A DNA stretch of 64,000 nucleotides from sequence record MT968995.1; one strand, given 5' to 3'. Of this stretch, positions 1 to 36,484 are shown in pieces. A model generated the notes under the pieces. The model did not search any database, was not told where the DNA came from, and was given only the letters and a program-made list of their open reading frames with translations. Source of the stretch: Escherichia phage vB_EcoM_WL-3. How positions within the stretch are numbered: position 1 is the stretch's first letter; every line of letters begins with the position of its first letter. The translations under genes and the position numbers were made by a program.

Positions 1-564
1 ATCGGCAGAGGTAGTTTCAACCCCAGAAATATTACCGTTAAAGGTTTCAACTCGAGCAAGGGTATCTTCAATATCAACCTTAGTCAGTGCTGCAATTTCA
101 ACTACATCATCAGCAGTACTAATTCCAAGGGCATTTGCTGCACGAGTTTCACGGATATATTCCAATTTAACCGCAAGTTCTTGACGAGCATCATCTAACT
201 CAACTACTTTCTTGGCGATTTCAATTCGCATTTCAGCATAACCGTCAGCCTTAGTAGTCAACTGCTCAGCTGTTCGACGATATAGTAAACCGAGTTTAGC
301 ATGCATTGTTACATCTTGGCCTTCGAAAAGAAGTTTACGAATTTCACGCTCTTTTGATTCGGCCTGTCGATTCTTTTCGATAACAAGTTCACGAATACGT
401 TTTTCTTCGTTAATAGATTTAACAGAAGCAGTTTTTAGATCTTTAATTTTATCAAGTAGTTTTGCTGCTGCAGCAGTATACTGTTCTTCGACAGATAGAT
501 TTTTAGCCATAGCAGAACCAAGTTTAGTGCGAATAAACTCAACAATTTTCTTCAGTGTGTTCAT
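1..564 (-). CDS. coiled-coil protein, C-terminus cut by window edge; possible PspA/IM30-like
   Basis: ATG at 564 (rc of cat 562-564) preceded by AAGGAAA; open to position 1; translation [28 protein letters not shown]... is heptad-rich and charged. Confidence 0.4.
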
Positions 565-929: not shown

Positions 930-1124
930 TTCATTCTCCAAGTTGTTTTCTGTATCAGTAGTTGATAGTTGTATAGTACCATGGAAGAACAGAGATGTAA
1001 ACAGTTTTGTGAAAAAATTTTTAGGGAATTCTAGGGCAGGGATGGGCAATTAAAGGATAGGATAATATATTATAAAGGGTATAAACTAAATGATGCCTAG
1101 AGAGGTCCAGAAAGGCCTAGATAC

Positions 1125-1150
1125 CAAAAAGCCCTATCATTTAGATAGGG
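1125..1150 (-). terminator. rho-independent terminator after IPIII-like gene
   Basis: 7-bp stem ccctatc/gataggg with 5-nt loop, followed on minus strand by CUUUUU. Confidence 0.5.
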
Positions 1151-1158
1151 ATTTAAAA

Positions 1159-1722
1159 TTATTTACCTAGTTTAGTTATTATAGCTTCGGCAGCAGCTTT
1201 TAGCTTAGATGCGGTGTTAATACGATTTTTAATTTCAGTATACGCATCGCCAAGAACGTCGAGGCTATCAGAATAAACACTTACACTATTGCGTTCGCTA
1301 TTTGAAATAGAACCTTTAGTTTTGCGGTCAAAATCGGTGTACACGTCTTGAAGATCGCGGGCTGCCTTCTTTGCATCATCCAATGCATCAAGAGCTTTAT
1401 TCAAAGCATTAACGTATTTTTTAGTGTCGAACATATTCTTAGAAATTTTAACAGGTGCGCGTTCAGGAGTAGCTAACACAGATTTAGGAACCTGAGCGCC
1501 AGATGCCAATTTCTTAGAAATTTTGAAAAATGCTTTATTGAATTTATTTTCTTGACTCATTGTAAAAGAACTATTATCGATGTTGTACATTTCAATAGCT
1601 TTAGCTTTCCACTTAAGAAAATCGCCGCGGTCTTTTGGATCCAATTGGAAGAATACTTTAGTAAGTTCTGCTTCAGATGGTAATTTTGCTGCTTCGGTTA
1701 AAAATTCGGCATAGGTTTTCAT
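1159..1722 (-). CDS. internal head protein with capsid targeting signal (IPIII-like)
   Basis: N-terminus MKTYAEFLTE matches the T4 internal-protein targeting signal MKTY.EF..E cleaved by gp21 protease; 187 aa. Confidence 0.55.
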   Translation of the reverse strand: MKTYAEFLTEAAKLPSEAELTKVFFQLDPKDRGDFLKWKAKAIEMYNIDNSSFTMSQENKFNKAFFKISKKLASGAQVPKSVLATPERAPVKISKNMFDTKKYVNALNKALDALDDAKKAARDLQDVYTDFDRKTKGSISNSERNSVSVYSDSLDVLGDAYTEIKNRINTASKLKAAAEAIITKLGK

Positions 1723-1812
1723 TTAAAATCCTTGAAATAATTTATCGGTCGGTTATTAATTATTTATTACTTTGTTATTATCCGTAACAGCATTCTCTAT
1801 GTGATTCAAACT

Positions 1813-1840
1813 AAAAAGCCCCAACCTTTCGGTCGGGGCT
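1813..1840 (-). terminator. rho-independent terminator ending the tRNA/stable-RNA transcript
   Basis: Minus-strand AGCCCCGACC-GAAA-GGTTGGGGCT followed by UUUUU. Confidence 0.7.
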
Positions 1841-2151: not shown

Positions 2152-2502
2152 TTAATATTCTTTTAAAGCATCAACCTGTTCACGACGTTTACGCCATAAA
2201 TCAATTGCTTCATACGCAGATTCAGCATTTCGAATTGGACGACATTTATATAAAGACTTGTGATTTTGATATTGTGTAGATAACGGAATTTTATCTAAAA
2301 GGTCTTTACGTTCAAAATATTCGTAACCATCTAAACCAAATGAACGATTTTTGAGAAATTGCCAATGACCATATTCGTTTTCGACATAAACATAATCTGC
2401 ATGCTGATAAAGCAAATTAATTACACGTTCAGAAATAACAGTGTCATTGTGATTAAAATAGAATGTTAAATCATGAACTACTAAATAAACATTACCTTTC
2501 AT
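2152..2502 (-). CDS. hypothetical protein
   Basis: 116-aa ORF with ATG start, between stable-RNA region and tRNA-Arg. Confidence 0.45.
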   Translation of the reverse strand: MKGNVYLVVHDLTFYFNHNDTVISERVINLLYQHADYVYVENEYGHWQFLKNRSFGLDGYEYFERKDLLDKIPLSTQYQNHKSLYKCRPIRNAESAYEAIDLWRKRREQVDALKEY

Positions 2503-2520: not shown

Positions 2521-2596
2521 TGGTCGAGGCAGTAGGGATCGAACCTACGACCTAGGACTTAGAAGGTCCTTGCTCTTCCTTCTGAGCTATGCCTCG
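2521..2596 (-). tRNA. tRNA-Arg (anticodon UCU)
   Basis: Hand-folded cloverleaf: acceptor CGAGGCA/TGCCTCG, anticodon loop CTTCTAA, T-loop TTCGATC, encoded CCA. Confidence 0.8.
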
Positions 2597-2600
2597 GATT

Positions 2601-2675
2601 TGGCGGACATGATAGGATTCGAACCTATAACCAATCGCTTAACAGGCGATCGCTCTGCCATTGAGCTACACATCC
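2601..2675 (-). tRNA. tRNA-Asn (anticodon GUU)
   Basis: Acceptor GGATGTG/CATGTCC, anticodon stem ATCGC/GCGAT, loop CTGTTAA, T-loop TTCGAAT, CCA. Confidence 0.75.
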
Positions 2676-2679
2676 AAAT

Positions 2680-2766
2680 TGGTGGGGAGTGATGGAGTCG
2701 AACCACCCGAGTCGCAATGACAATGGATTTACAGTCCACACCGCTACCTCTACGGGATAACTCCCC
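2680..2766 (-). tRNA. tRNA-Tyr (anticodon GUA), type II with long variable arm
   Basis: Acceptor GGGGAGT/ACTCCCC, anticodon loop CTGTAAA, 15-nt variable arm, T-loop TTCGACT, CCA; D-arm irregular. Confidence 0.7.
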
Positions 2767-2778
2767 TAATTCTTAATT

Positions 2779-2853
2779 TGGTGGCCCTGGGTGGAATTGA
2801 ACCACCATCTGGCGATTATGAGTCGCTTGCTTGAACCTTCCAGCTACAGGGCC
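2779..2853 (-). tRNA. tRNA with CAU anticodon (Met, or Ile if C34 is modified)
   Basis: Acceptor GGCCCTG/CAGGGCC, anticodon loop CTCATAA, T-loop TTCAATT, CCA. Confidence 0.7.
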
Positions 2854-2861
2854 AAATTTTC

Positions 2862-3347
2862 TTATTTTATGTAATATTTATTTAAAAACTTTCTAGCTTG
2901 AGTATGGCTAACATTTATAGCATTTGCATAATTTTTAATAAAACCTCGTTCATCCATATTAAAACTTTCTAATATTTTTAATCGTCTAGCTATCTCATCT
3001 TGACTTAAAGTACTTGCATTATTTTTAGAAATTTTTTCTAAGGACTGTACTGAGTGTTTTCGACCATTAAAATTAAAATTTTTAGATTTTGGAGGAAATC
3101 TATCATTTAGTCTCGCATCTTTTGTATTTTGATTATTAGTTGCGCAATATATGTTATTTAATGAGTATGGTCCTTTATCACCAAAACGGCACATACAGTA
3201 TTCATGACCCTTTCTTCCACGCTTATCATAATTTCCCGTTGATTTCCACCAATGCAACCACTCATCAAAAGTTAAATTCCATTCAATGTTTCTACGTATA
3301 GCAGAATTCCGCTGAGAAATATATTTTGCATAATCTTCTTTCATCAC
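2862..3347 (-). CDS. free-standing HNH-like endonuclease candidate inside the tRNA cluster (position of T4 segB)
   Basis: 161-aa ORF; block GHEYCMCRFGDKGPYSLNNIYCATNNQN resembles phage His-Me-finger/HNH motifs; no GIY-YIG motif. Confidence 0.45.
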   Translation of the reverse strand: MMKEDYAKYISQRNSAIRRNIEWNLTFDEWLHWWKSTGNYDKRGRKGHEYCMCRFGDKGPYSLNNIYCATNNQNTKDARLNDRFPPKSKNFNFNGRKHSVQSLEKISKNNASTLSQDEIARRLKILESFNMDERGFIKNYANAINVSHTQARKFLNKYYIK

Positions 3348-3391
3348 AAATTTCTCTACTTATTACATACACTAAGCTAAATCAGCAAAAC

Positions 3392-3481
3392 TGGCGGAGG
3401 CGATAGGATTTGAACCTATGAGTCGCCGGAGCGACTGCCGGTTTTCAAGACCGGTGCATTAAACCACTCTGCCACGCCTCC
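3392..3481 (-). tRNA. tRNA-Ser (anticodon UGA), type II
   Basis: Acceptor GGAGGCG/CGCCTCC, anticodon stem CCGGT/ACCGG, loop CTTGAAA, long variable arm, T-loop TTCAAAT, CCA. Confidence 0.8.
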
Positions 3482-3483
3482 AG

Positions 3484-3557
3484 TCTCCATACAAGGATTT
3501 GAACCTTGGACCTCCTGATCCCAAATCAGGCGCTCTACCAAACTGAGCTACACGGAG
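3484..3557 (-). tRNA. tRNA-Pro (anticodon UGG), CCA not encoded
   Basis: Acceptor CTCCGTG/TATGGAG (with GU pairs), anticodon loop TTTGGGA, T-loop TTCAAAT; 2 nt from tRNA-Ser. Confidence 0.75.
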
Positions 3558-3567
3558 TAAATTAAAT

Positions 3568-3641
<74 letters not shown>

Positions 3642-3646
3642 AAATT

Positions 3647-3733
3647 TGGTGCGAGAAGTGGGACTCGAACCCACAAGGAAATCATTCCGCAGCATTTTAA
3701 GTGCTGTGCCTTTACCAATTTGGCCATTCTCGC
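3647..3733 (-). tRNA. tRNA-Leu (anticodon UAA), type II
   Basis: Acceptor GCGAGAA/TTCTCGC, anticodon stem CAGCA/TGCTG, loop CTTAAAA, long variable arm, T-loop TTCGAGT, CCA. Confidence 0.8.
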
Positions 3734-3734
3734 G

Positions 3735-3807
3735 CTGGGAATAAAGGACTCGAACCTTTGCATCCTGGAATCAAAATCCAGTGCCTTACCAACTTGGCTA
3801 ATTCCCA
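3735..3807 (-). tRNA. tRNA-Gln (anticodon UUG), CCA not encoded
   Basis: Acceptor TGGGAAT/ATTCCCA, anticodon stem CTGGA/TCCAG, loop TTTTGAT, T-loop TTCGAGT. Confidence 0.75.
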
Positions 3808-4778: not shown

Positions 4779-4806
4779 TTTATTCTCCTCAGTAGTAGAT
4801 AGGGTA

Positions 4807-4836
4807 ATAGTATCACTACCCTATCTAAAAGTAAAC
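4807..4836 (-). promoter_or_regulatory. T4 early-type sigma70 promoter
   Basis: Minus strand GTTTAC, ~17-18 nt, TGaTACTAT; -10 sits in loop of 9-bp inverted repeat gatagggta/taccctatc (4798-4825). Confidence 0.5.
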
Positions 4837-5070
4837 TTATTTTTTACGAAAAATTGATTTATTTTCTGCTGCCCATTTTTCAATAACTGCAGCAGGACCA
4901 GTAACAACAATTTTATCACCGTAATCTTCTGCGGCGAGTTGACCGAAATTATCTAATGCATCACGAAGAACTCCATGAGGCATTTCACCCATTTTATCTT
5001 TCTTGCCAGTGTAAATAAACTCAACTTTTACATCAGCAGTTTCAGCAATAAATTCTTGGTAAGTTTTCAT
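4837..5070 (-). CDS. ipI: internal protein I-like capsid cargo protein with targeting signal
   Basis: Track ORF starts MEIKM; second ATG gives MKTYQEFIAE, the T4 IPI targeting signal as recalled; GGAAA 7 nt upstream. Confidence 0.5.
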   Translation of the reverse strand: MKTYQEFIAETADVKVEFIYTGKKDKMGEMPHGVLRDALDNFGQLAAEDYGDKIVVTGPAAVIEKWAAENKSIFRKK

Positions 5071-5104
5071 TTTGATTTCCATTTGGTTTTGTTTTGATAG
5101 GGTA

Positions 5105-5134
5105 ATAGTATCACAACTAAAACCCTATGTAAAC
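5105..5134 (-). promoter_or_regulatory. T4 early-type sigma70 promoter
   Basis: Minus strand cacaaagttGTTTACA, 17 nt, TGaTACTAT; AT-rich upstream; 7-bp inverted repeat atagggt/accctat spans the -10. Confidence 0.5.
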
Positions 5135-5146
5135 AACTTTGTGAAA

Positions 5147-5404
5147 TTATTTTAAATCTTCTAATCGTTTCTTCATCTTAGAACCATTTTTAGCAATTTC
5201 TCCTGCATCGGAGCATAATGCTAAAAGTGCTTTAACTTTAGTTTGGTCTCCTTTAAAAGATGAAGGATCGACCGCAGCAGCAAGTTCTTTAATACGAGAG
5301 AAAAGACGCTCAGCTTCAGCTAAAGCCATTCCAAGCTTTACTTCCATACCGTGGGAAGATTCAGTGATAGTAGTTTTTGTAGCAAACTCTTTGAAAGTTT
5401 TCAT
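5147..5404 (-). CDS. small protein with internal-protein-like targeting signal
   Basis: N-terminus MKTFKEFATK resembles the MKTY.EF motif; 85 aa. Confidence 0.45.
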   Translation of the reverse strand: MKTFKEFATKTTITESSHGMEVKLGMALAEAERLFSRIKELAAAVDPSSFKGDQTKVKALLALCSDAGEIAKNGSKMKKRLEDLK

Positions 5405-5435
5405 TTTTATTTTCCTAATTAATTTTGATGAGGTA

Positions 5436-5465
5436 ATAGTATCACTACCTCATCAGTATGTAAAC
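5436..5465 (-). promoter_or_regulatory. T4 early-type sigma70 promoter
   Basis: Minus strand cacaaagttGTTTACA, 17 nt, TGaTACTAT; 10-bp inverted repeat tgatgaggta/tacctcatca (5426-5455) brackets the -10. Confidence 0.5.
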
Positions 5466-5477
5466 AACTTTGTGAAA

Positions 5478-6162
<685 letters not shown>

Positions 6163-6163
<1 letters not shown>

Positions 6164-6888
6164 TATAGTACCTTTAGTGTATTTTTAATTTTAGAAAAAA
6201 GTTCTTCAAGAGAACCATCGTTTGTAATTACTAAATCGCCATCACGAATTGGCAATCCAGCTTCTGTAATATGTGTATCATTGGATTTTTGACCAGGACG
6301 AACTACATGAATTACTGTAGCACCCATCGCCCTAGCCGCATCCATTTCATGATCTTGACGGGTATCAGGAACGATATAATAATCATAACCTGAGTTAAAT
6401 TTATCAAGATAATCTAAAGCAAATAATTTTACCCAGTACATGCGGTCGAAGTTATTAACAATCAAATCCGTACCTAGGGCTTGCATCAGACGACGGACTG
6501 ACCATTGATCTTCAATATTATTTATAACGTCAATAATCTTGTTAAATGCTACGGAATTAACTGATTCTTGTCCTTCGTCATCAAAAACAAACACACCTTT
6601 AATTGGGCTTTTACCATTAAGATAGCAAAATGCTTGTTCCATAATCGTGATTACTTCTAATTTAGTTAGATTTAAATTAGTCTCACGATCATAGTCAATT
6701 CCTTCAAACTCTTTACGAGTTAAGCAAGGATAGTCGGTATTTGCTGCAAATACTCCCCATGCATAAGCCAATGCATCCTTAATAGGACCAGCAAGTTGGT
6801 ATTTAACTGCAGAATAATTGCTCATGATAAAATCAGCAGTAGTATCTTTTCCACTACGCTTTACACCGCTTAAAAAGATTAGTTTCAT
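6163..6888 (-). CDS. 1: gp1 deoxynucleoside monophosphate kinase
   Basis: 241 aa; P-loop GVKRSGKDT near N-terminus; synteny 57A-1-3-2-4. Confidence 0.8.
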
Positions 6889-6937
6889 ATGTTTCTCCTC
6901 AAATTTAGTTAAGATTATAACACATGAAACTGAAGCA

Positions 6938-7468
6938 TTAAACTTCCGCTATAATTTTTCCATCTTTTTCTACTTGAAAATACGTATAAGGAATCGTTGC
7001 TGTACATACTAAAGCCGGGTCTGAATCTTCTGTGTAGCTAAATTCTACTTCAGACAGGTCAGAAACCCAAGGCTTATAAAAATTTATTGACATCACGATT
7101 TCAGTTTTGCTATTATCTAAAATGTAAAGCGTAATGTATTCAGGACCTGTTTTTTGGGCAGTATTTTCACCTGTAAGATAGTTGCTAGTTCCTAGCATCC
7201 ATTCATACATTCCTATCCATGACTTAAGTTCTTCATCAACTATAAATCTCACGATGAGTGGATCGTACTCAAATGTAGCACCTGGACGTTGTGCTCGGCC
7301 CAGTCCAAACGGCCCAGTCACGGTATCAGTAACAGGTATTCTAATTCCTGGAATAGGAACTGACTGAGCATTTAAAGTAAAAGCAGATGTAGTATTACTA
7401 TGTGGTATTGATACTACAAAGTTAGTTGTATTTGCTTGGTTAAAAATTTGTTGCAGTGCTTGCGACAT
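6938..7468 (-). CDS. 3: gp3 tail completion / sheath stabiliser
   Basis: Track ORF begins at TTG; in-frame ATG (MSQALQQ) with GAGGAA upstream gives 176 aa, the T4 gp3 length. Confidence 0.75.
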   Translation of the reverse strand: MSQALQQIFNQANTTNFVVSIPHSNTTSAFTLNAQSVPIPGIRIPVTDTVTGPFGLGRAQRPGATFEYDPLIVRFIVDEELKSWIGMYEWMLGTSNYLTGENTAQKTGPEYITLYILDNSKTEIVMSINFYKPWVSDLSEVEFSYTEDSDPALVCTATIPYTYFQVEKDGKIIAEV

Positions 7469-12031: not shown

Positions 12032-14014
12032 ATGGCAAATACCCCTGTAAATTATCAATTAACAAGAACAGCAAATGCTATTCCCGAGATATTCGTCGGG
12101 GGTACGTTTGCTGAAATAAAACAAAACCTCATTGAATGGCTTAATGGCCAAAATGAATTTTTGGATTATGATTTTGAAGGCTCAAGATTAAACGTTCTGT
12201 GTGACCTTTTAGCTTATAATACATTGTACATTCAACAGTTTGGTAATGCTGCTGTGTATGAAAGCTTTATGCGTACTGCTAACTTACGAAGTTCAGTTGT
12301 TCAAGCTGCACAAGATAACGGATATTTACCTACTTCAAAATCCGCTGCGCAGACCGAAATTATGTTAACATGCACCGACGCATTGAATAGGAATTACATT
12401 ACTATTCCTCGCGGAACTCGCTTTTTAGCATATGCAAAAGATACTTCTGTTAATCCATATAACTTCGTTTCTACCGAAGACGTTATTGCTATTCGTGATA
12501 AAAATAACCAATATTTTCCGCGTTTAAAATTGGCCCAGGGACGTATAGTAAGAACTGAAATCATTTATGATAAATTAACACCTATTATCATTTATGATAA
12601 AAATATTGATAGAAACCAGGTTAAATTATATGTTGATGGAGCGGAATGGATTAACTGGACGAGAAAGTCAATGGTTCATGCTGGTTCAACATCAACGATT
12701 TACTATATGCGTGAAACTATTGATGGAAACACTGAATTCTATTTTGGTGAAGGTGAAATTTCTGTTAATGCTTCTGAAGGAGCTTTGACCGCTAATTATA
12801 TCGGAGGTCTCAAACCTACTCAGAACTCTACGATTGTTATTGAGTACATTAGTACTAATGGTGCTGACGCGAACGGAGCAGTCGGATTTTCATACGCAGA
12901 TACATTAACAAATATAACTATCATCAATATTAATGAAAATCCAAACGGTGACCCAGATTTTGTTGGGGCAGATGGAGGCGGTGATCCAGAAGATATTGAG
13001 CGTATTCGCGAATTGGGTACTATTAAACGCGAAACCCAGCAACGATGCGTAACTGCGACTGACTACGATACATTCGTTTCAGAGAGATTTGGTTCTATTA
13101 TTCAGGCAGTTCAGACTTTCACTGATTCTACTAAACCTGGGTATGCATTTATTGCTGCTAAACCTAAATCAGGTTTGTATTTAACTACCGTACAGCGTGA
13201 AGATATTAAAAATTATCTCAAAGACTATAATTTAGCTCCTATTACGCCATCAATTATTTCTCCTAATTATCTTTTTATTAAGACTAATTTAAAAGTCACG
13301 TATGCTTTAAATAAACTGCAAGAATCCGAGCAGTGGCTTGAAGGTCAAATAATTGATAAAATTGATCGCTATTATACCGAAGATGTAGAAATTTTTAACT
13401 CATCTTTCGCTAAATCTAAGATGTTAACTTATGTAGATGATGCAGATCATTCTGTCATCGGTTCATCGGCGACTATTCAAATGGTTCGTGAAGTACAAAA
13501 CTTCTATAAAACACCTGAAGCAGGTATTAAATACAATAATCAAATAAAAGATCGTTCTATGGAATCTAATACGTTTTCATTTAATTCTGGACGAAAGGTT
13601 GTAAATCCTGATACTGGTTTAGAAGAAGATGTATTATATGATGTTCGTATAGTATCAACAGACCGAGATTCTAAAGGAATTGGTAAAGTTATTATTGGTC
13701 CATTTGCTTCTGGCGATGTTACTGAAAATGAAAACATTCAGCCATATACAGGCAATGATTTTAATAAATTAGCAAATTCTGATGGACGCGACAAATACTA
13801 TGTTATCGGTGAAATAAATTATCCGGCTGACATGATTTATTGGAATATCGCTAAAATTAATTTAACATCTGAAAAATTTGAGGTTCAGACTATTGAATTA
13901 TATTCTGACCCAACCGATGATGTTATCTTTACCCGTGATGGTTCACTGATTGTATTTGAAAATGATTTACGTCCGCAATACTTAACTATCGATTTGGAGC
14001 CTATATCACAATGA
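12032..14014 (+). CDS. 6: gp6 baseplate wedge protein
   Basis: 660 aa as in T4; synteny. Confidence 0.9.
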   Translation: MANTPVNYQLTRTANAIPEIFVGGTFAEIKQNLIEWLNGQNEFLDYDFEGSRLNVLCDLLAYNTLYIQQFGNAAVYESFMRTANLRSSVVQAAQDNGYLPTSKSAAQTEIMLTCTDALNRNYITIPRGTRFLAYAKDTSVNPYNFVSTEDVIAIRDKNNQYFPRLKLAQGRIVRTEIIYDKLTPIIIYDKNIDRNQVKLYVDGAEWINWTRKSMVHAGSTSTIYYMRETIDGNTEFYFGEGEISVNASEGALTANYIGGLKPTQNSTIVIEYISTNGADANGAVGFSYADTLTNITIININENPNGDPDFVGADGGGDPEDIERIRELGTIKRETQQRCVTATDYDTFVSERFGSIIQAVQTFTDSTKPGYAFIAAKPKSGLYLTTVQREDIKNYLKDYNLAPITPSIISPNYLFIKTNLKVTYALNKLQESEQWLEGQIIDKIDRYYTEDVEIFNSSFAKSKMLTYVDDADHSVIGSSATIQMVREVQNFYKTPEAGIKYNNQIKDRSMESNTFSFNSGRKVVNPDTGLEEDVLYDVRIVSTDRDSKGIGKVIIGPFASGDVTENENIQPYTGNDFNKLANSDGRDKYYVIGEINYPADMIYWNIAKINLTSEKFEVQTIELYSDPTDDVIFTRDGSLIVFENDLRPQYLTIDLEPISQ

Positions 14015-34581: not shown

Positions 34582-35006
34582 TGCTTCTGATCCCTGAAAC
34601 TCATGAATTAGTTCTCGAGAATGTCGAAGCACTTATTCCTGAAGCACAGGGTCGCTTTGACGAATTGTCTTCTGCTTTAAATAAAGACGATATAAATACA
34701 ATTGTCGAGAATATGCTTGATGATGAAACTGATTTAGCAGTTGCATTAGCTTCTATTAATGAAAACATGCCGTTAAATGAATTCATTGTTAAGCACGTTT
34801 CAGCTCGTGGTGAAATTACACGTACTAAAGATCGCAAAACACGCGAACGTAATGCATTTCAAACCACTGGGCTGTCTAAAGCAAAACGTAGACAAATTGC
34901 TCGCAAAGCTACCAAAACGAAGATTGCCAATCCAGCAGGTCAATCTCGTGCTCAGCGTAAGCGTAAAAAAGCTCTTAAACGCCGTAAAGCATTAGGATTA
35001 AGCTAA
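34581..35006 (+). CDS. 68: gp68 prohead core protein
   Basis: 141 aa as in T4; basic C-terminus. Confidence 0.85.
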
Positions 35007-35644
35007 TGAATGAACCCCAATTACTAATTGAAACTTGGGGTCAACCTGGCGAAATTATTGATGGTGTGCCAATGCTCGAATCCCACGATGGAAAAGACTT
35101 AGGTTTAAAACCGGGTTTATACATCGAAGGAATATTCATGCAAGCAGAAGTCGTCAATAGAAATAAACGTCTTTATCCAAAACGCATATTAGAAAAAGCG
35201 GTAAAAGACTATATTAATGAGCAAGTTTTAACTAAACAAGCTCTCGGAGAATTAAATCATCCTCCACGCGCTAATGTTGACCCGATGCAAGCCGCTATCA
35301 TTATAGAAGATATGTGGTGGAAAGGAAATGACGTATACGGACGAGCTCGTGTTATTGAAGGTGACCATGGTCCTGGAGATAAATTAGCAGCTAATATTCG
35401 TGCCGGATGGATTCCAGGAGTTTCTTCTCGTGGATTAGGTTCATTGACTGACACAAATAAAGGTTATCGTATCGTAAACGAAGGATTCAAATTAACTGTA
35501 GGTGTTGATGCAGTATGGGGTCCAAGTGCTCCAGATGCATGGGTAACTCCTAAGGAAATTACCGAATCACAGACGGCGGAAGCCGATACAAGTGCCGATG
35601 ACGCCTATATGGCTCTCGCAGAGGCCATGAAAAAAGCGTTATAA
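35006..35644 (+). CDS. 21: gp21 prohead core protease
   Basis: 212 aa as in T4. Confidence 0.9.
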   Translation: MNEPQLLIETWGQPGEIIDGVPMLESHDGKDLGLKPGLYIEGIFMQAEVVNRNKRLYPKRILEKAVKDYINEQVLTKQALGELNHPPRANVDPMQAAIIIEDMWWKGNDVYGRARVIEGDHGPGDKLAANIRAGWIPGVSSRGLGSLTDTNKGYRIVNEGFKLTVGVDAVWGPSAPDAWVTPKEITESQTAEADTSADDAYMALAEAMKKAL

Positions 35645-35674: not shown

Positions 35675-36484
35675 ATGCTTAAAGAACAACTGATTGCTGA
35701 AGCGCAAAAAATTGATGCTTCCGTTGCTCTTGATAGTATTTTCGAATCAGTTAATATTTCTCCGGAAGCAAAAGAAACTTTCGGCACTGTATTCGAAGCT
35801 ACCGTCAAGCAGCACGCCGTTAAATTAGCTGAATCTCATATCGCTAAAATTGCTGAAAAAGCAGAAGAAGAAGTAGAAAAAAATAAAGAAGAAGCCGAAG
35901 AAAAAGCTGAGAAGAAAATCGCTGAGCAAGCTTCTAAATTCATCGACCATCTTGCGAAAGAATGGCTCGCTGAAAATAAATTAGCAGTTGATAAAGGCAT
36001 CAAAGCCGAACTGTTTGAATCCATGCTTGGTGGATTAAAAGAGCTCTTTGTTGAACACAACGTTGTTGTTCCAGAAGAATCAGTTGATGTTGTGGCTGAA
36101 ATGGAAGAAGAGCTGCAAGAACATAAAGAAGAATCAGCTCGTCTGTTCGAAGAACTCAATAAGCGTGACGCATATATCAATTATGTGCAGCGTGAAGTGG
36201 CATTGAGCGAAAGTACTAAAGATCTGACTGAGTCTCAAAAAGAAAAAGTCTCTGCTCTGGTCGAAGGTATGGATTATTCAGATGAATTCTCAAATAAATT
36301 GAGTGCCATCGTAGAAATGGTGAAGAAGTCTAATAAAGATGAAAGCACTATTACTGAGGGTATAAATACTCCTGATACTGAAGCAGCCGGACTAAATTTC
36401 GTCACTGAAGCTGTAGAAGATAAAGCTGCACCTGGTGCAGAAGATATTGTAAGTGTATATGCGAAAGTCGCATCTCGTTTCTAA
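35675..36484 (+). CDS. 22: gp22 prohead core scaffold protein
   Basis: 269 aa, Glu/Lys-rich helical. Confidence 0.9.
   Translation: MLKEQLIAEAQKIDASVALDSIFESVNISPEAKETFGTVFEATVKQHAVKLAESHIAKIAEKAEEEVEKNKEEAEEKAEKKIAEQASKFIDHLAKEWLAENKLAVDKGIKAELFESMLGGLKELFVEHNVVVPEESVDVVAEMEEELQEHKEESARLFEELNKRDAYINYVQREVALSESTKDLTESQKEKVSALVEGMDYSDEFSNKLSAIVEMVKKSNKDESTITEGINTPDTEAAGLNFVTEAVEDKAAPGAEDIVSVYAKVASRF

Follow-up and report, generated by a model that had tools for sequence, protein, structure and literature searches.

A third ORF with a capsid-targeting-like leader

We analyzed a 64,000-nucleotide (nt) stretch of Escherichia phage vB_EcoM_WL-3 (MT968995.1; hereafter the window), in which an open reading frame (ORF) on the minus strand, at 1159..1722, likely encodes an accessory internal head protein of Tequatrovirus, that is, a protein that would be packaged into the head, processed by the gp21 protease, and injected. 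As judged from sequence, it is very probably the third head-packaged protein of this phage to be tagged with a capsid-targeting sequence (CTS). The ORF starts with ATG, terminates with the stop codon at 1161..1159, and comprises 187 amino acids (aa) including the leader; the coordinates, the length, and the N terminus MKTYAEFLTE are all as given in an initial annotation of this DNA, which left the strand (minus) unstated. Its N terminus reads MKTYAEFLTEAAKL / MKTYAEFLTEAAKLPSEAEL, with zero in-frame codons between the preceding stop and the ATG, and a Shine-Dalgarno-like AAGGA can be read from the sequence 6 nt 5' of the ATG (1729..1733, minus strand). The product matches the profile of phrog_2280 ("unknown function") with an E value of 2.9e-53, residues 1 to 181 lying on positions 1 to 178 of 178. 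RB14ncORF136c is the same gene, with 4 of 187 residues different, and copies at 85% identity or more are found in 164 phage records (tblastn), where the annotation is always "hypothetical protein." Comparison with the DalCa, RB14, and CT01 alleles gave ratios of nonsynonymous to synonymous substitution (dN/dS) of 0.04 to 0.10, i.e., strong purifying selection. A spurious or decaying ORF, for which the frameshifted or truncated state of some copies and the existence of chimeric metagenome fragments might speak, can hardly be entertained in the face of these dN/dS values and of an architecture, Shine-Dalgarno sequence, promoter, and terminator that are conserved over many lineages.

The first 10 codons (1693..1722, minus strand) specify a CTS-like leader, and gp21 is predicted to cut after Glu10 (L-T-E|A). 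MKTYAEFLTE is identical at 8 of 10 residues to the leader of T4 IPII and IPIII (MKTYQEFIAE|A); the ORF keeps Tyr4, Phe7, and Glu10 of the T4 leader and has Leu in place of Ile8, as the L/I-X-E motif permits. Head loading of IPIII requires its first 10 residues, which are also sufficient for it (PMC9026906, a review of Black laboratory work), and amber-suppressor scanning of IPIII assigned targeting to residues 4 and 7 and processing to residues 8 and 10 (PMC9026906); gp21 cleaves after L/I-X-E (PMC9026906), the 10-residue leader alone packages foreign proteins (PMC9026906; PMC3012670), and internal proteins co-purify with gp22 (PMC9026906). All four experimentally defined key positions are intact in the ORF, which bears out the capsid-targeting signature initially proposed for its N terminus. 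Leu8-Thr9-Glu10, followed by Ala, is the sole [LI]xE in the whole ORF protein, so gp21 should trim it once and not shred it as it does the core proteins. The predicted mature protein (1162..1692, minus strand) has 177 aa, a mass of 19.7 kDa, an isoelectric point (pI) of 9.54, 26 lysines and 6 arginines, and a net charge of +9.

A six-frame scan of the window with the motif MK[TS][YFW]x[ED][FYL] returned exactly three ORFs, at 1159..1722, 4837..5070, and 5147..5404, and these are the same three leader-bearing ORFs that the initial annotation had counted. A motif with 7 or 8 fixed residues that falls exactly at the first ATG of the ORF is not a chance occurrence. The second CTS protein (4837..5070, minus strand; 77 aa, MKTYQEFIAE|T) belongs to phrog_8111, "internal virion protein." The ORF list has it as 81 aa (4837-5082, MEIKMKTYQEF…), while both the PHROG profile and the CTS begin at the second Met (5070), which is likely the true start. 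The third (5147..5404, minus strand; 85 aa, MKTFKEFATK...) has an IPI-type longer leader, belongs to phrog_3499, "internal head protein," and is identical in sequence to RB32 Ip5.

Conservation of the leader in the phrog_2280 family

A word-indexed single-sequence search retrieved close relatives only, and exhaustive phmmer, tblastn, and profile searches were needed to recover the family. phmmer yielded one distant relative, P0013, with 32% identity and the leader MITFNEFLNE|S; tblastn with this sequence reached 350 phage records, and the profile search added further clusters. The members examined come from Karamvirus, Dhakavirus, Winklervirus, Kanagawavirus, Kagamiyamavirus, and Jiaodavirus, together with the Mosigvirus-like coliphage JQD51 (unclassified below the subfamily), an Erwinia phage, an unclassified Klebsiella phage, and Yersinia phage fHe-Yen9-01, so that at least eight Tevenvirinae lineages carry a phrog_2280-type gene. 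The Mosigvirus-type, Yersinia, and RB32 members match the phrog_2280 profile as well. At all loci inspected, to which the fHe-Yen9-01 locus does not belong, the gene occupies a constant site directly past the tRNA/stable-RNA cluster and ahead of e.8/e.6. An 869-aa repetitive protein (P0014) that matched residues 3 to 97 over five repeats (E=1.2e-5) was rejected, as its score is inflated by the repeats and it holds no significant Pfam stretch.

The family members are 19 to 29% identical to the window protein overall, and all of them have the leader M-x-x-[FY]-x-[ED]-[FI]-[LI]-x-E, the Jiaodavirus member being one residue shorter ([LI]-x-E at 7 to 9). When the window-type clade is compared with the others, identity is 69% over the 10 leader positions and 24% over the remainder. 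That the leader and cleavage site have been kept while the rest of the protein diverged fast is the strongest indirect argument for a functional leader. This bears on the idea that the product is a late cytoplasmic protein that stays unpackaged and whose leader is a mere passenger of recombination among internal-protein genes sharing 5' sequences. T-even internal-protein loci do recombine via shared flanking repeats (as seen from the RB32 annotation and from the cassette repeats described below), and no proteomic support for packaging was found; however, a passenger would not stay conserved across genera with positions 4, 7, 8, and 10 held, and because the 10 residues of T4 suffice for unrelated proteins, a late protein bearing them should be loaded regardless. 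We regard the passenger explanation as quite improbable. In all members the alignments show a helical N-terminal domain, a linker of variable length, and a helical C-terminal region; all mature forms are lysine rich, with masses of 20 to 23 kDa and pI values of 9.5 to 9.8, and each gene has its own terminator.

RB32ORF133c (157 aa, MKSYAQFLNE|A) matches phrog_2280 with an E value of 7e-60 and the family profile with 94% probability in hhalign. It and DalCa gp134 share with the window ORF the PHROG, the locus, the leader type, and the terminator-repeat flanks, but they represent a diverged paralogue, 30 aa shorter and with about 25% identity to the family profile. The paralogue lies at 6619-7092 (minus strand) of the RB32 stretch and at 5402-5875 of the DalCa stretch and is absent from the window; DalCa has both paralogues in tandem, each with its own terminator.

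Relationship to T4 IPIII and other internal proteins

The initial annotation had called the protein "IPIII-like," and as a statement of homology this did not hold. BLASTP to T4 IPIII covers residues 1 to 12 and to IPII residues 1 to 11, and IPI gives no alignment; the T4 proteins constitute separate PHROGs (phrog_5341 for IPIII, phrog_7857 for IPII, and phrog_4363 for IPI), none of which matches phrog_2280 even at E<=10. Profile alignment of the family by hhalign extends the consensus match to IPIII residues 1 to 25 (25 N-terminal columns) at 52% probability, and Ip4 is matched over 18 columns at 19%. Similarity to IPII and IPIII thus ends with the leader, an outcome that the initial annotation had named as the first half of what would speak against it, the other half being the absence of packaging. 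T-even internal proteins share only the CTS (PMC3012670); since similarity confined to the CTS is the norm among them, its absence beyond the leader does not refute packaging.

The likeness to IPIII is physicochemical: IPIII* has 183 aa, 20.4 kDa, a pI of 9.65, and 25 lysines and 8 arginines, close to the values of the mature ORF protein given above. Both carry a CTS of 10 residues in which the key residues agree, with L/I-X-E as the cleavage site, and both genes are nonessential accessories. They differ in location, ipIII lying between denV and e and the window ORF after rnaC; in upstream signals, the ip genes being preceded by a sigma70-like GTTTAC...TAxxxT and the window ORF by its own late-promoter box; and in that no sequence or fold similarity is detectable outside the leader. 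A Foldseek search of BFVD, made with a moderately confident model, found only the protein's own family, although the presence of an IPIII model in that database is unconfirmed.

A diverged IPIII orthologue relocated to another locus would explain the similar length, mass, pI, and Lys/Arg content, the shared leader, and the hhalign extension, and also DalCa, which carries the window-type gene and has no ipII or ipIII between denV and e. The BLASTP, PHROG, and Foldseek results argue against it, and Shfl2, SCS4, and PhAPEC2 carry both the window-type gene and ipIII, each at its own locus, so orthology appears highly improbable. The coexistence of both genes in these three phages also rules out the window-type gene as a replacement of IPIII, as DalCa might have suggested. 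The phrog_2280 protein is, on sequence grounds, IPIII-like by analogy only, and we treat it as a distinct family and not as an IPIII orthologue. In most members outside Tequatrovirus, "rMTKDkW" follows the leader (consensus about 18-28), and IPIII has "GINKDEWT" (18-25) at the same distance, a resemblance that may go back to a common ancestor or to a functional N-terminal signal longer than the leader. The window allele is without the "TKDxW" element, which weighs against orthology as well.

The protein also resembles IPI and its form IPI* (anti-GmrSD), IPII, and the Ip4, Ip5, Ip7, and Ip9 proteins of T2, T6, RB15, RB32, RB70, and K3, which are small, mutually unrelated except for the CTS, encoded in hyperplastic repeat-flanked T-even slots, and thought to be injected host range factors. 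Those genes occupy the 57B-tRNA and denV-e slots, whereas the window ORF lies in a third slot, from rnaC to e.8; its product is larger than most of the series and, unlike those proteins, belongs to a family conserved across many genera. Ejection proteins of phiKZ, 201phi2-1, and SPN3US are likewise head loaded, trimmed C-terminal to Glu by a gp21-like protease, and ejected into the host, but with an S/A-X-E motif, far longer propeptides, and unrelated sequences, so that the likeness is an analogy only.

Late-promoter box, terminators, and the repeat-bounded cassette

Upstream of the ORF, AATAAATA (1761..1768, minus strand), with its 3' end 38 nt ahead of the ATG, is the A(-13) variant of the T4 late-promoter box TATAAATA; the perfect box was sought upstream of the window allele, where only the A(-13) variant is present. 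Of 50 T4 late sites in the list of Geiduschek and Kassavetis, 32 are perfect and 9 have "A(-13) in place of T," the commonest variant (PMC2988020), and according to Nolan et al., other T4-like phages have A or T at position -13 (PMC1524935). Every family member examined has a late-promoter box, TATAAATA or NATAAATA, at a fixed upstream offset: five members of other lineages have the perfect TATAAATA at the same offset, directly past the preceding terminator, and the others have GATAAATA or CATAAATA at the late-box position. A sigma70-like candidate, ATCACA-17-GATAAT (1805..1777), was discarded, as it scores no better than shuffled background; shuffled sequence yields at least as many sigma70-like matches as the region around the ORF.

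The terminator initially noted after the ORF was found as an intrinsic terminator of its own (1150..1126, minus strand), which begins 8 nt past the stop codon and consists of a 7-bp stem and 5-nt loop, CCCTATCTAAATGATAGGG at 1150..1132, followed by CTTTTT; the DalCa record annotates the corresponding site as a rho-independent terminator. A second terminator, the end of the rnaC-like stable RNA (1840..1817, or 1840..1812 at its widest, minus strand), is the stronger of the two and isolates the ORF from upstream transcription. Because it lies between two terminators, the ORF needs its own promoter, and the sequence makes late, monocistronic expression likely.

These elements form a 687-bp insertion/deletion cassette (1123..1837) that has a 28-nt imperfect direct repeat at its ends (1123-1150 and 1810-1837; 75% identity, 687-nt spacing); the two cassette terminators share GGGCTTTTT. 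In T4, the rnaC terminator (…GGTTGGGGCTTTTT) runs straight into GGTATCTA…, with a single terminator and no cassette, whereas the window has an additional 687 bp that carry the ORF along with its promoter box and terminator (…GATAGGGCTTTTT) and lead into the same GGTATCTA. With terminator repeats at both ends, terminator-to-terminator recombination would excise or insert the unit cleanly. According to the RB32 annotation, RB32ORF133c at the same site is surrounded by a "34 bp imperfect direct repeat." Being repeat bounded and variable, the rnaC-e.8 locus resembles in its behavior the two hyperplastic slots already known for internal proteins and thus provides evidence for a third plastic internal-protein locus, this one bounded by terminator repeats.

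In RB69, the gene is split into two overlapping ORFs, ORF149c and ORF148c (13429-13991 of the RB69 stretch), consistent with a frameshift, and G29 (MK327940) and OE5505 (MK373785) match in two pieces, again consistent with a frameshift; these split copies may be pseudogenes or sequencing errors. Since it is absent from T4 and split in these three phages, the gene appears dispensable. The split copy of RB69 is a Tequatrovirus-type allele, although RB69 is a Mosigvirus. In four chimeric ORFs from metagenomic/Logan contigs (P0010, P0011, P0012, and P0015), parts of the protein are joined to the N terminus of e.8 (P0015), to NudE (P0011), or to sequence of no relation; these ORFs have the look of deletion products and show the plasticity of the locus.

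The small internal-protein genes have different flanks. Each is bordered on both sides by a near-identical element, "tttcacaaagttgtttaca…gtgatactattaccc," made of a GTTTAC / TAxxxT sigma70-like promoter and a hairpin, at about 5405-5470, 5083-5146, and 4780-4836 (minus strand), and the element is also found upstream of T4 ipI, ipII, and ipIII. The elements are probably the "43 bp direct repeats" of the RB32 annotation and likely serve as recombination substrates for the exchange of internal-protein cassettes. The phrog_2280 cassette is unlike these genes in having terminator repeats and a late box in their place.

Predicted structure

AlphaFold2 run with near-identical sequences only gave a predicted local distance difference test (pLDDT) value of 62, and a 21-sequence alignment raised it to 77. 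In the model, leader residues 1 to 11 are floppy and are followed by an N-terminal helical domain (residues about 15 to 75; 1498..1680, minus strand; pLDDT of about 75 to 85), a disordered linker containing proline and lysine (residues about 77 to 98; 1429..1494, minus strand; pLDDT <50), and a C-terminal helical region with three long helices (residues about 100 to 186; 1165..1425, minus strand; pLDDT of about 85 to 94). Drawn more narrowly, the three segments span residues 17 to 73, 77 to 90, and 101 to 186. The linker is much longer in other genera and, in most of them, rich in Pro, Ala, and Lys. It is bracketed in the window by a KISK-encoding direct repeat (1436-1458 and 1511-1533, 75-nt spacing), and the allele of Shigella phage CT01 (1201-1689 of its stretch) has lost in frame exactly 25 linker codons between the two KISK-encoding repeats. 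The deletion indicates that the linker is dispensable and unstable in length, as fits a flexible, length-tolerant segment. Weak Pfam matches (cytochrome b562, the ALIX V-domain, and others) lie far below the gathering scores and were dismissed as reflecting helical composition.

Proposed pathway and role

We propose that transcription would occur late, from the ORF's own AATAAATA promoter, as a monocistronic message between the two terminators. The leader MKTYAEFLTE would dock the precursor on the gp22 scaffolding core during prohead assembly, and gp21 would then cleave after Leu8-Thr9-Glu10 and free a lysine-rich basic protein (177 aa, 19.7 kDa, pI 9.5) to be retained in the head with the DNA and then injected. 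Portal, gp68, gp21, gp22, gp23, and gp24 are all encoded in the window, with the gp21, gp22, and gp68 homologues within 34.6-36.5 kb. The gp21-type prohead protease (35006..35644, plus strand; phrog_207, "head maturation protease," E=8e-76) is the enzyme expected to remove the leader, and the gp22-type scaffolding core protein (35675..36484, plus strand; phrog_237, "head scaffolding protein," E=4e-93) is the expected docking partner of the leader.

Several points weigh against the proposed internal head protein. Packaging, cleavage, and injection are all inferred, and no virion proteome covering any phrog_2280 member was found in the literature, where we likewise found nothing on RB69ORF148c/149c, Shfl2p135, or phrog_2280; the particle proteome of phiR1-RT was of no help, because this phage is absent among the records matching the fHe-Yen9-01 member. 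The putative late box of the window allele is a variant that matches at 7 of 8 positions. Several hundred database records all say hypothetical, including the expert RB14 and RB69 annotations that named Ip4, Ip5, Ip7, and Ip9. Finally, neither the sequence reveals a biochemical activity nor the fold a function, as nothing significant was found in PDB (by profile and by Foldseek with two models), in BFVD outside the protein's own family, in Pfam, or in PADLOC.

After injection, the protein may act as a host-specific "first-response" factor in counter-defense or DNA protection, a role by analogy for which we see about an even chance; DNA charge neutralization or head assembly is the alternative. 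IPI* inhibits GmrSD (PMC3012670; PMC9026906), and IPIII is required on E. coli ECOR17 and acts from the cytoplasm without its CTS (PMC9391042); these precedents make an injected, host-specific protective role the leading guess. A neighboring possibility is that the protein is an accessory of the prohead core or of assembly in the manner of gp67/gp68 or IPIII, contributing to scaffolding or to DNA condensation inside the head instead of being an injected effector. In IPIII mutants, head assembly runs at about half the normal rate and the burst falls to about 40% (PMC9026906), and lysines are the only residues of internal proteins seen contacting DNA phosphates (PMC3012670); the protein is basic and lysine rich, and the Pro/Ala/Lys linker of most genera resembles DNA-binding tails. 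On the other hand, the gene is dispensable, as T4 lacks it and RB69, G29, and OE5505 have apparently frameshifted copies, and the linker is deletable in CT01; moreover, core proteins undergo cleavage at several sites and leave the head, whereas the ORF protein has a single site. We consider a core accessory rather unlikely, though it is not exclusive of the internal head protein proposed here.

On a broader and more tentative view, phrog_2280 might constitute an unusually widespread, unrecognized class of T-even internal proteins, encoded in a third slot past the tRNAs and stable RNAs and injected to neutralize some first-line host defense, in the way that IPI* acts on GmrSD and IPIII apparently acts in ECOR17, a view that we think possible but on the doubtful side; if it were true, tandem paralogues of the RB32ORF133c and window types would widen the target range. 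Internal proteins enter the cell before any other phage protein and are hence prime candidates for injected counter-defense factors and host range determinants. The family has every sequence hallmark of internal proteins and is called "hypothetical" everywhere, so reannotation would be simple; it occurs in several hundred T4-like phages of many lineages, many of them isolated on clinical or food-borne pathogens, and offers a concrete candidate set for virion proteomics and host range screens. The concept itself is unchanged, as diverse CTS-tagged proteins have been known in T-even phages since the 1990s; the value of the family lies mainly in annotation and in its standing as a counter-defense candidate.

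Genome context

The first 8 kb of the window, which is Tequatrovirus DNA, share 98 to 99% identity with phages such as PYps5T and OE5505. On the minus strand, the gene order is that of T4: 57A and 57B; the CTS ORFs 5147..5404 and 4837..5070; trna.4, trna.3, and trna.2; the tRNAs; rnaD/rnaC; the ORF; and e.8 and e.6. Nine tRNAs at 2521-3807 and homologues of T4 rnaD/rnaC at about 1817-2150 (by alignment with T4) precede the ORF, in line with its earlier placement beyond a tRNA/stable-RNA block. The neighboring ORFs 2862..3347, 2152..2502, and 1..564 gave no match in Pfam. The first of these, a 161-aa ORF on the minus strand, splits the tRNA cluster at the place taken in T4 by segB, a GIY-YIG homing endonuclease; in OE5505, the corresponding stretch is annotated with an "HNH endonuclease," which may be this ORF. 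The tRNA set comprises Arg-TCT, Asn, Tyr, Met/Ile-CAT, Ser, Pro, Gly, Leu, and Gln. Compared with the eight tRNAs of T4, the window gains Asn and Tyr and is without Thr, whereas RB14 has Asn and Tyr and keeps Thr.

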